A stretch of 64,000 nt of DNA, taken from NCBI GenBank assembly GCA_946535705.1, contig CAMNDT010000005.1:6616-70615 (forward strand), written 5' to 3'. Numbering within the stretch: the stretch's first letter is position 1; the number at the start of each line of letters is the position of its first letter. Below the pieces are notes generated by a model. It was not told the origin of the DNA. It worked only from the letters and a program-made list of their open reading frames with translations, and made no database searches. A program made the position numbers and the translations under genes. Source of the DNA: an uncultured Prevotella sp. GTDB lineage: Bacteria > Bacteroidota > Bacteroidia > Bacteroidales > Bacteroidaceae. Below are positions 37,494 through 41,294 of this stretch, piece by piece.

Positions 37494-37688
37494 ATGAAAG
37501 AAGAAAAACAAGGCATCAACTGGCTCGACCTTATACTCATTGGCCTCTCGCTATTTGTAGCAAACATAATTGAGAAAGCTATCAACTTACAAAACAACGT
37601 GTTGAGTTTCCTACTCTTTGTCGTTGTTGCCATCCTACTCATTATAGTTACCTACTTCCTAAAGTATATGATCACAAGGGATGAATAG
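37494..37688 (+). CDS. small 2-TM membrane protein
   Basis: 64 aa, two hydrophobic helices, tight spacing after peptidase. Confidence 0.6.
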   Translation: MKEEKQGINWLDLILIGLSLFVANIIEKAINLQNNVLSFLLFVVVAILLIIVTYFLKYMITRDE

Positions 37689-37700
37689 AGGCTTGCACAA

Positions 37701-39617
37701 TTATTTAAATTTCAGTCTTAGGCTATTAAGTATAACAGACACAGACGATAATGCCATTAATGCGCTTGCCCACATTGGAGTAATCTGAAAGTTGATACCG
37801 AAGAGATAGAGCACACCGGCAGCCAATGGAATGCATATAATATTGTAGATAAAAGCCCAGAAGAGATTCTGCCAAATCATACTAACAGTTCGTTTGCTAA
37901 GAATGATAGATTCAGGAATAGACATAAGATCATTCCCCATCAATGTTACCTGTGCCACATCCATTGCAACATCAGTACCCTTACCAATAGCTATGCTCAC
38001 ATCAGCCAAAGCCAATGCCTGAGTATCATTAATGCCATCACCCATCATAGCAACCGTTTTGCCTTCAGACTTGAGACGTTTCACCAGATTTTCTTTATCT
38101 GTTGGCAGTACACAACTTTGGTAGCGCTTGATACCGGCTTTTTCTGCCCAATATTTAACAGATTCTTCCTTATCACCACTCATCATATAAACCTCTACAC
38201 CACTATCATGAAGCATTTTTATAGCCTCCTTAGCATTTGGTTTCAATGCCTCACGTTCTTCCAAAGCGAGACTTGAAGGCTTAGTAAAATCAACATTGAG
38301 GTTAGGAATTGTTAGTGTACCCGTCTTATCTGTTACAAGTGCATTAACCTTACGCATACTCTCTAATGCCGTAGCATCTTTGATTAGTACCTGTTTTTCT
38401 GCCGCCTTACCAATACCCACCATGAGGGCTGTTGGAGTGGCAAGCCCCATAGCACACGGACATGCAATGACCAATACAGCCAACGCCGACATAATAGCCT
38501 GTGGAAGAAATGACATACCACCAACAAGCAGCCATACCCAAAAAGTGCCAAATGAAATAGCAGCAACTACAGGAACAAATATCAATGCCGCCTTGTCAAC
38601 AATGCGCTGAACAGGTGCCTTAGAGTTCTGAGCTTCTTGCACCATACGAATAATATGCGACAAAGTTGTATCCTCACCTATATGGCGAGCACGCATACGA
38701 AATTTACCTTGACTTGGAATAGTACCAGCCAGAACAGTTGCCCCCTTTCTCTTCTCAACAGGAGTAGGCTCACCAGTTATCATGCTTTCATCAACATAGG
38801 CAGCATCCTCTGTCATAAAACTCTCGGCATAGATCACTTCACCATCAACAGGCACCTTTTCTCCAGGGCGCACCTCAATAATATCCCCCTTTCCTATAGT
38901 TGATATAGGGACTTCCTCGATAGACTCATCATTGACTACATGTGCTGTTTTGGGCGACATACCCATTAGCTCACGTATGCTTGAAGCAGTACCATCCTTA
39001 GCTTTCTCCTCAAGTAAACGACCAGTAAGCACGAACGTGATAATCATTACACAGGCATCGAAATATGTATGCCACTCAACACCACGAATGGTCCATACTA
39101 TATCCCCCCAAAAAGTGTTGAAAACACTGAAACCAAAACTGATACTTGTAGAAAGAGCGACTAAAGTATCCATATTGGCAGAACCATGTTTTAACTGTTT
39201 AAAAGCTGTTACATAAAACTGGCGACCACAATAAAACATGTTAGCTATGGCAAGAAGCATGGCAAGCTGGTTTGCCATCGACCTATTGTCAAAATCTATC
39301 CAGTGCATACTGATAGCCATAACAGCAACAGAGAAAAGCCATGATAGAATAGTCTTGTGCTTTAGTAAAACATATTCACGCTTTTCTATTTCTTCTGCAC
39401 TTCTATCCTCCTCTATCACCATATCATAGCCGATAGAATTGATTTCTCTCTTTATTTCCTCAAGTGTAATACTTGTTTCGTCAAAATCAATGAATGCCGA
39501 GCGCCCCACCAAGTTTACATTTGCTTGTTTTATGCCTTCAAGCTCATCAAGTTTACGCTGCACATTTGCAGAACATGCAGAACATGCCATGCCTATTATA
39601 GGTACAGTTTTCTTCAT
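37701..39617 (-). CDS. P1B-1 (Cu+) type ATPase lacking the nucleotide-binding domain
   Basis: GMACSAC, TGE, CPC, DKTGT, GDGIND, YN, MxxSS present; only 21 aa between DKTGTLT and LKP. Confidence 0.85.
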
Positions 39618-39818
39618 AACTTATTTTTTAAATTAATTGAAGTTCGGCAAAGATAAGCATTTATCGACAACATTGTGTGCGTAAACGACATTTTTTGATA
39701 TAAAAATTGCATTTTTTTGATAAAAAAAGAAACAACTTTAAAGGATAAATTGTATATTTGACCACATAAAGAAGTAAGTTTATCTCGCATTATAACTTTT
39801 AATTATTAATACAAACCT

Positions 39819-41294
39819 ATGACAATTACTATGATTATTGAGCTATTAGTAGTGCTTATGGCCTTATGGGTTGGTGCGCGCTACGGTTCATTAGCTCTCG
39901 GAGCAATATCCGGAATTGGACTTGCCGTACTTGTATTCTGTTTTCATTTAAAACCAGGAGAACCTCCTACTGATGTTATCTACATCATCATCGCTGCCGT
40001 GACCTGTGCTGGTATTCTTCAAGCGTCAGGTGGTATGGACTGGATGATACAAATAGCAGAGAAATTGCTACGAAAACATCCCGACCGTATCACTATCATG
40101 GCACCATTCACAACTTTTTTTCTAACAGTGCTTGTAGGTACAGGACATGTTGTATATACATTGATGCCTATTATTTGCGACATTGCATTAAAGAAAGGCA
40201 TTCGTCCTGAGCGCCCTTGCGGTATTGCATCTATTGCCTCACAGATAGGTATCACATGCTCTCCGATAGCTGCTGCTGTGGTTGCTTTCTCTGCCATATC
40301 AATAGAACATGGTTTCAACATTACTAATGTGCAGATTATCATGGTTACGATACCAGCCTGCGTCATTGGTATCCTTATGGCTGTGGCATATAGCTGGCAT
40401 CGCGGACTTGATCTAAATGCCGACCCTGCATTCCAAGCCAAGATAAAAGATCCTGTACAATATGCTTATATCTATGGCAGTACAGCAACGACTCTTGACA
40501 AACAAATATCTAAGGACAGCAAACGATCTGTATATATTTTCCTTGCTGCTCTCGTTGTGATTCTTATAATATCTCTATTAAAGATGTTTGGGGTAGAGAT
40601 TCTACCTGCCTATAGTACAGTGAAAGCCGTTGACGGTGCTCTTCCTGTAACACTTGCGAATGGTGTTACAATGACTGCAAAACAAATTGCATCTGCCGGA
40701 ATTGTTCTCGACGGAGTAACAAAAGCAGCAACAACACGCTTAACCATGAATGTGGTGATACAGATTATCATGATTATGGCTGCTGCGCTGATGATTATTT
40801 TCTGTAAAGCAAAACCAAAAGACGCAATACAAGGAGCAGTATGGCAGAATGGTATGGTGGCGGTAGTTGCTATATATGGAATCGCATGGATGAGTAACAC
40901 ATATTTCGAAAATTATAAACCCGAAATGCAGGCTATGCTCACCGACCTTGTATCAAATTATCCGTGGACAATAGCCATAGCCTTCTTCCTGGTATCAGTA
41001 TTAATAAATTCACAAGGTGCCGTTGTTGTAAGTATGCTTCCTCTTGCCTACTCTCTTGGCATCGAGGGATGGATACTCATAGGCGTTATGCCATCGGTAT
41101 ATGGCTATTTCTTCATTCCTAACTATCCATCAGATATTGCTACAGTAAACTTCGACCGATCGGGAACAACTATTATTGGCAAATATCTGCTTAACCACTC
41201 ATTCATGGCTCCAGGACTGATACATATCGTAACATCAACAATTGCCGGCATCGGCATTAGTTACGTTTTCCACTTTGTATTGGGACTGTATTAG
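39819..41294 (+). CDS. anaerobic C4-dicarboxylate transporter (DcuA/DcuB family)
   Basis: GTGHVVY, GIRPERP, SPIAAA, NFDRSGTT, NHSF. Confidence 0.9.
   Translation: MTITMIIELLVVLMALWVGARYGSLALGAISGIGLAVLVFCFHLKPGEPPTDVIYIIIAAVTCAGILQASGGMDWMIQIAEKLLRKHPDRITIMAPFTTFFLTVLVGTGHVVYTLMPIICDIALKKGIRPERPCGIASIASQIGITCSPIAAAVVAFSAISIEHGFNITNVQIIMVTIPACVIGILMAVAYSWHRGLDLNADPAFQAKIKDPVQYAYIYGSTATTLDKQISKDSKRSVYIFLAALVVILIISLLKMFGVEILPAYSTVKAVDGALPVTLANGVTMTAKQIASAGIVLDGVTKAATTRLTMNVVIQIIMIMAAALMIIFCKAKPKDAIQGAVWQNGMVAVVAIYGIAWMSNTYFENYKPEMQAMLTDLVSNYPWTIAIAFFLVSVLINSQGAVVVSMLPLAYSLGIEGWILIGVMPSVYGYFFIPNYPSDIATVNFDRSGTTIIGKYLLNHSFMAPGLIHIVTSTIAGIGISYVFHFVLGLY

Follow-up and report, generated by a model that had tools for sequence, protein, structure and literature searches.

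The window analysed here is a stretch of 64,000 nucleotides from an uncultured Prevotella sp., and coordinates given without a contig or locus name refer to it. On its minus strand lies an intact gene for a CopA-type (P1B-1) ATPase of 638 aa, which we refer to as short copA. The following features were located in the gene and directly upstream of it.

37701..39617, stop codon included, minus strand: short copA, intact open reading frame for the 638-aa CopA-type (P1B-1) ATPase
39423..39608, minus strand: N-terminal HMA metal-binding domain, residues 4-65 (Pfam PF00403, E = 5e-14)
39573-39584, minus strand: CxxC of the HMA domain (C12xxC15), both cysteines invariant or nearly so
38802..38822, minus strand: A-domain insertion of about 7 residues, SFMTEDA, residues ~266-272, clade-specific in the alignment
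38769..38777, minus strand: A-domain TGE dephosphorylation motif, T281-G282-E283 (G282 and E283 invariant in 60 sequences)
38454..38462, minus strand: CPC Cu(I) site in M4, C386-P387-C388 (invariant in 60 sequences)
38310..38330, minus strand: DKTGTLT phosphorylation motif, residues 430-436, with D430 as catalytic aspartate (invariant)
38247..38309, minus strand: 21-residue linker, residues 437-457, in place of the ~100-residue N-domain (from the alignment)
38172..38180, minus strand: P-domain SGD motif, equivalent to TGD, S480-G481-D482 (G481 and D482 invariant)
38094..38096, minus strand: conserved P-domain lysine K508 (invariant in 60 sequences)
38025..38042, minus strand: GDGIND Mg2+/phosphate motif, residues 526-531 (G526, D527, G528, N530 and D531 invariant in all 60)
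37842..37847, minus strand: YN of M5, Y591-N592, Cu(I)-type signature (from the alignments)
37743..37757, minus strand: MxxSS of M6, M621..S624-S625, Cu(I)-type signature (from the alignments)
39648..39655, minus strand: candidate -7 promoter TATCTTTG, 31 nt before the ATG

The candidate promoter fits TAnnTTTG, the Bacteroidota -7 promoter consensus; a sigma-70 promoter scan is not informative for Bacteroidota. Short copA stands alone in the window. The divergent gene upstream (39819-41294, plus strand) encodes a DcuA/DcuB-family C4-dicarboxylate transporter of 491 aa, and the 368-position profile matched it in two stretches, which points to a sizeable insertion in the transporter. Downstream, a convergent 64-aa ORF for a two-helix membrane protein with a weak DUF350 match (37494-37688, plus strand) separates the 3′ end of copA from the gene of a clostripain-family lipoprotein, likewise convergent; two contigs of the same species also have this ORF called as a gene.

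The conservation of the motifs was assessed on 60 short and canonical sequences. Strictly invariant are C15, G282, E283, C386, P387, C388, D430-T434, G481, D482, K508, G526-G528, N530, D531, N592, M621, S624 and S625, and nearly so (at least 90 %) are C12 and Y591. Position 480 is S or T in short and canonical forms alike, and I529, invariant in a set of 16 sequences, is V in a few of the 60. Such joint conservation of the Cu site and the aspartyl-phosphate motifs is the pattern predicted by continued use of both. As a reading from the sequence alone (hereafter the sequence-only reading) had reported, CxxC, TGE, CPC, DKTGT, GDGIND, YN and MxxSS are all present in an intact frame; its description of the gene proved correct throughout. 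As far as these alignments go, every residue known to be needed for binding of Cu(I) in the membrane, for aspartyl phosphorylation and for dephosphorylation is kept.

Regarding membership in the P1B-1 group, the protein has the HMA CxxC, the CPC/YN/MxxSS signatures and the DKTGT, TGE, [T/S]GD and GDGxND motifs, as well as the eight-helix P1B membrane architecture with A- and P-domains (AF2 model and Foldseek). Its descent from CopA is supported by its nesting among Bacteroidales CopA representatives in the tree and by the NCBIfam Cu-ATPase model TIGR01511, which scored 501.5 bits against a cut-off of 397, but with the match split into two stretches. Pfam recognised HMA at residues 4-65, E1-E2_ATPase at 220-408 and, at residues 451-539, only profile positions 92-191 of Hydrolase. 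What the protein does not have is an N-domain with an HP motif after DKTGT; a 21-residue linker stands there instead.

That only 21 residues follow DKTGTLT had been noticed in the sequence-only reading, and the coordinates of this linker (38247-38309) are exact in the 638-aa frame. The HP motif had been described as missing, and no HP dipeptide was found anywhere in the 638-aa protein when the translation was read directly. The distance from the D of DKTGT to xGD is 50 residues in the short copA product and 143-155 in canonical P1B relatives, so that about 93-105 residues are absent. After the linker the P-domain resumes with LKPNAKEAI...MMSGD. PDB chains of CopA and ATP7B align to residues ~1-437/459 and 455-636 of the query, leaving their N-domains unmatched. 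An alignment of 13 short and 3 canonical forms places the junctions precisely: the short forms retain the first hinge strand, IPNxN[VI], after DKTGTLT, continue with a conserved DFTKxxxLxxEERE loop and rejoin the P-domain at the (D/E)xLKP hinge, giving IPNxN[VI]DFTKxxxLxxEERE as the linker consensus of the clade. We conclude that the whole N-domain was removed at its two hinge strands by an in-frame deletion in a descendant of a Bacteroidales CopA. In canonical P1B-ATPases, which are built of A-, P- and N-domains, the HP nucleotide motif and its pocket lie in the N-domain, and this domain joins in closure of the headpiece (PMC9433437). Given these roles of the N-domain in the solved P1B-ATPases, a cycle without it would be unprecedented.

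One member of the same clade, a 706-aa protein from another genome (G020, L017:404-2521), has a low-complexity insertion of ~45 residues in the linker, which therefore tolerates changes in length; its MA-MB loop carries a further insertion. The 7-residue A-domain insertion occurs in most short forms of the Prevotella clade and in one further protein without an N-domain (P0136, see below), and it is absent from two basal members (L014 and L015), from the other N-less lineages and from canonical CopAs. This insertion (SFMTEDA) may compensate for the lost interface of the A-domain with the N-domain.

A structure prediction, proposed in the sequence-only reading, gave a confident AF2 model (60-sequence alignment; mean pLDDT 83.5, pTM 0.76), in which the linker is mostly coil with pLDDT ~66. 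The top Foldseek matches of the model were Cu P1B-ATPases, namely ATP7B (7xuk, TMq 0.80) and CopA of A. fulgidus (7r0g, TMq 0.77). Compared with the CopA P1B-1 structures (A. fulgidus 7R0G/3J09, L. pneumophila 3RFU/4BBJ and human ATP7B 7XUK), the short form shares the HMA CxxC, the core of MA/MB and M1-M6, the CPC/YN/MxxSS signatures, TGE and the DKTGT/[ST]GD/GDGIND series, with phmmer E-values down to 1e-131. Two differences were found: the ~100-aa N-domain of these structures, with its SEHPL/HP and GxG pocket, corresponds to the 21-residue loop, and the A-domain insertion is found only on the short-form side, in most members of the clade.

The homologue search with the same short linker, likewise proposed beforehand, showed that such relatives are abundant, with proteins of 637-639 aa at 76-99 % identity. 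Short forms were found at 61-99 % identity in many species of the Prevotella group. When 5.8 billion proteins were searched, the best 120 of thousands of matches were nearly all 637-650 aa long, with identity falling from 99 % to 76 %, and the 76 % end of these 120 includes proteins named from Prevotella melaninogenica. Within the same genus, half of the sampled species (12 of 24) gave a contiguous match over residues 1-637 at 62-75 % identity in ORFs of 644-674 aa. Matches from other families of the order were split (1-437 and 456-636) and lay in ORFs of 726-878 aa; these are canonical forms. Of 151 sampled family genomes, 20 (this one included) have the short form, distributed over 8 genus codes at 62-76 % identity, and 69 have canonical CopA, at no more than 54 % identity and with an ORF of at least 715 aa; no genome has both. 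The closest full-length relatives are canonical Bacteroidales CopAs (P0125-P0187 and L018-L020) at 42-54 % identity, and the short clade nests among them. These proteins are 715-960 aa long, their N-domain is complete, and no genome was found to contain one of them together with the short form; some of them likewise have HMA-AraC regulators nearby.

Selection on the gene was estimated from pN and pS, which served for the dN/dS comparison that had been suggested. Against the relative with 86 % identity, pN was 0.081 and pS 0.74; dS is saturated between species, so dN/dS can be given only as an upper bound of roughly 0.03-0.1. In the same comparison the two P-domain remnants, with pN of 0.014 and 0.073, are constrained no less than the protein is on average, while the linker, with pN of 0.118, is under slightly weaker constraint. 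In more distant members of the clade pS is fully saturated. Between species, pN lies far below pS. Within the species (98.9 % nucleotide identity) dN/dS was 0.34, a value that carries little weight as it comes from just 22 differences (10 synonymous and 12 non-synonymous, none in the motifs). Taken with the distribution of the two forms, these comparisons show that the short form is maintained by selection across Prevotella and several allied genera, where canonical CopA would otherwise stand. The sequence-only reading had offered a clean in-frame deletion and a conserved minimal form as alternatives, and both halves hold. The deletion is not a peculiarity of one strain with full-length relatives; many species carry the same short form in place of canonical CopA.

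The genomic neighbourhood was inspected at 21 short-form loci with about 6 kb of flank. Upstream copZ was found at 8 of them, and the gene of a 187-aa HMA-AraC regulator, placed upstream of copZ and short copA, also at 8. In the relative with 86 % identity and in P. melaninogenica, a gene for a 70-94-aa HMA protein (CopZ-like) lies 12-17 bp upstream of short copA, and in P. melaninogenica the 187-aa AraC-type gene follows further upstream. This regulator combines an AraC HTH with an N-terminal HMA-like domain, which scored 23.8 bits, just below the Pfam cut-off of 24.8. At two loci of relatives (L027:6653-7216, the P. melaninogenica locus of CP072359.1, and L040:8873-9436) the HMA-like CxxC fused to the AraC HTH is encoded upstream of copZ and short copA. 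The regulator is likely a one-component copper sensor. No orthologue of copZ or of the HMA-AraC regulator was found in the window's own assembly, which is 84 % complete. Beyond these two, no other gene directly adjoins short copA at more than a minority of the 21 loci.

Loss of the N-domain is not confined to the Prevotella clade. Among the best 150 representatives from 1.84 billion proteins, eight lack it: P0122, which is the clade's own representative, the fragment P0123 and six further proteins (P0136, P0161, P0130, P0188, P0229 and P0260), all six with the full set of motifs. The distance from D to xGD in these six is 33-49 residues, against 50 in the window protein. P0136 has the DFTQ loop in common with the Prevotella clade, and likewise the A-domain insertion. 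The other five have different, shorter junctions (33-45 residues). Some of the further proteins possess an additional HMA domain at the C-terminus. The clusters of P0188 and P0260 comprise 40 and 21 members, one of the P0188 members being named from a Bacteroidaceae MAG, and these lineages are present on many contigs. Compared with the short form of Prevotella, the other CopA-like lineages have lost the same domain and kept the catalytic and Cu motifs, but they differ in junctions, linker lengths and contexts.

In a tree built with the junction columns removed, the Prevotella clade and P0136 group together with support of 98 and the other N-less proteins fall among canonical forms. The free tree implies at least three changes of state, while the AU test does not reject a single N-less clade (delta lnL 30, p = 0.27); one origin of the loss or several are both compatible with the tree and the test. 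The FPNTN of P0229 resembles the IPNxN of Prevotella. A search for substitutions common to all N-less lineages and rare in canonical forms returned nothing convincing, only the hinge residues G438, P440 and D456 and, in some lineages, P286. The second P of TGEPxP (P286) is P in 34 of 39 canonical sequences in the A2 alignment and is replaced in five of seven N-less lineages; the Prevotella clade keeps it.

The reading that we favour, with somewhat better than even confidence, is that short CopA is a working Cu(I) transporter that cycles through an aspartyl-phosphate, with a small acyl phosphate or weakly bound ATP as the presumed donor. Cu(I) would be exported through an E1/E1P/E2P cycle on Asp430, and the phosphoryl donor would reach the uncapped site of the P-domain directly. 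One candidate donor is acetyl phosphate, which this fermenter can produce via Pta-AckA, or a similar small acyl phosphate; equally possible would be ATP bound weakly through its phosphates alone. Both ackA and pta were found in the genome. As the pathway is equally present in relatives with canonical CopA, it is permissive and does not discriminate. An open active site of this kind has a parallel in the capless (C0) HAD phosphatases, which have a Rossmann-like core, the DxT, S/T, K and DD motifs and a cap site without insertion. The likeness concerns the way of working, for these phosphatases are soluble, whereas in short CopA the core is part of a full transporter that includes an A-domain. 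SERCA is able to fill vesicles with Ca2+ when acetyl phosphate takes the place of ATP (PMC3366780), so a P-type cycle needs no nucleotide in principle. Here, too, the likeness is one of working and is limited to the possible non-nucleotide donor, as SERCA has an N-domain and prefers ATP. We know of no P1B pump for which acetyl phosphate has been shown to serve as the drive. A more far-reaching proposal, that these proteins would be natural examples of P-type transporters drawing their energy in vivo from a donor other than a nucleotide (acetyl phosphate, a different small acyl phosphate or else a phosphotransfer protein), is put forward here as a tentative possibility.

It is alternatively conceivable, but in our view unlikely, that the protein does not act as a primary pump but as a Cu(I) facilitator, a device for metallation or delivery, or a copper sensor, with Asp430 phosphorylated only by Pi or serving as a conformational switch, and no net input of energy. 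The loss of the ATP-binding domain fits this explanation, as does the finding that the window's own genome has short copA without copZ or a copper regulator. The phosphorylation chemistry could be kept for backdoor phosphorylation of E2 by Pi, a known property of P-type ATPases. However, TGE, DKTGT, K508, GDGIND, CPC, YN and MxxSS are strictly kept in clades whose identity to the window protein is just 42-49 %, which is what a full catalytic cycle predicts; the alternative readings leave the conservation of TGE, DKTGT, K508 and GDGIND jointly with the Cu site in the membrane unexplained. Moreover, the short form replaces canonical CopA instead of accompanying it, and relatives keep copZ and the regulator as neighbours, as in an efflux operon.

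The nucleotide-binding function might also be supplied in trans, either by a protein that is unrelated or too diverged to be recognised, or by the N-domain of the Zn/Cd-type paralogue described below, with the supplier docking on the open P-domain. We searched the window's own genome for a stand-alone N-domain with tblastn, using eight N-domains as queries, and with a profile HMM against all six-frame ORFs, and found none. The only match of both searches lies inside a 629-aa P1B paralogue on another contig (G000 C128:34607-36500, L002/L003), which has no HMA domain, CPC in M4, GDVG in M6 and a complete N-domain with STHP; CPC, GDVG and this N-domain mark it as a Zn/Cd-type (P1B-2-like) pump. 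A 23-sequence N-domain profile (A3) likewise found no stand-alone N-domain in five short-form genomes that are at least 99 % complete: its significant matches lay only inside P1B ORFs of 626-755 aa, and the one leftover was negligible (E = 0.13, internal stop). The suggestion of the sequence-only reading that the N-domain comes from a separate protein thus found no support as far as a homologous stand-alone domain in these six genomes is concerned. The own genome and each of the five complete relatives encode a Zn/Cd-type paralogue with a complete N-domain, which could in theory lend it, and capless HAD enzymes, which often borrow a cap from a partner or second subunit, offer a precedent. Against this, besides copZ and the HMA-AraC regulator no flanking gene recurs beyond a minority of the 21 loci, and three other N-less lineages, whose contexts are Bacteroidales-like, have no partner gene in common. 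We therefore regard supply in trans as quite improbable.

The other P-type ATPases found in the window's own genome are the Zn/Cd-type paralogue and a P2-type pump only. One short-form genome (G173) also encodes a 755-aa CopB-type P1B-3 ATPase (L054, G173:C1:1673800-1677800) with CPH, a long His-rich N-terminus and a full N-domain, so that as a rule, though not in every case, the short form is the sole copper-type P1B pump. A near-identical copy of this CopB-type gene, with an almost identical upstream frame, occurs in a species of the same genus without the short form (L021, G018), which suggests a recent horizontal spread.

That the gene is decaying, was shortened recently in one strain only or results from faulty assembly is effectively excluded: dN/dS within the species, at 0.34, is not particularly low and the own assembly is incomplete and split into 133 contigs, but the same junction recurs in hundreds of independent contigs from many species with frames intact everywhere, pN lies far below pS between species, and a same-species contig from an independent sample has identical gene length and neighbours.

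Full-text literature searches, which left most subscription journals outside their coverage, returned no description of a P1B-ATPase without an N-domain, and a 2026 survey that counts CopA in Prevotella makes no mention of a missing domain. In databases the short forms are named "heavy metal translocating P-type ATPase" or "HAD-IC family P-type ATPase". To our knowledge, all characterised P-type ATPases bind ATP via the N-domain, and the superfamily is defined in part by this domain. The short form lacks it and is widespread, under selection and in the place of the normal copper pump, which means either that a P-type cycle can run with no pocket for a nucleotide or that the P-type scaffold has been put to another use. 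Specialists would find the short pump surprising, and how it is powered is a question open to standard phosphoenzyme and transport assays. If the donor is not a nucleotide, the N-domain would be dispensable for the Post-Albers transport cycle and copper efflux would be coupled directly to fermentative metabolism. The hosts of the short form are abundant oral, gut and rumen bacteria. In microbiomes rich in Prevotella the genes now carry the label of ordinary copper ATPases, and the finding is relevant to annotating and predicting copper tolerance there.
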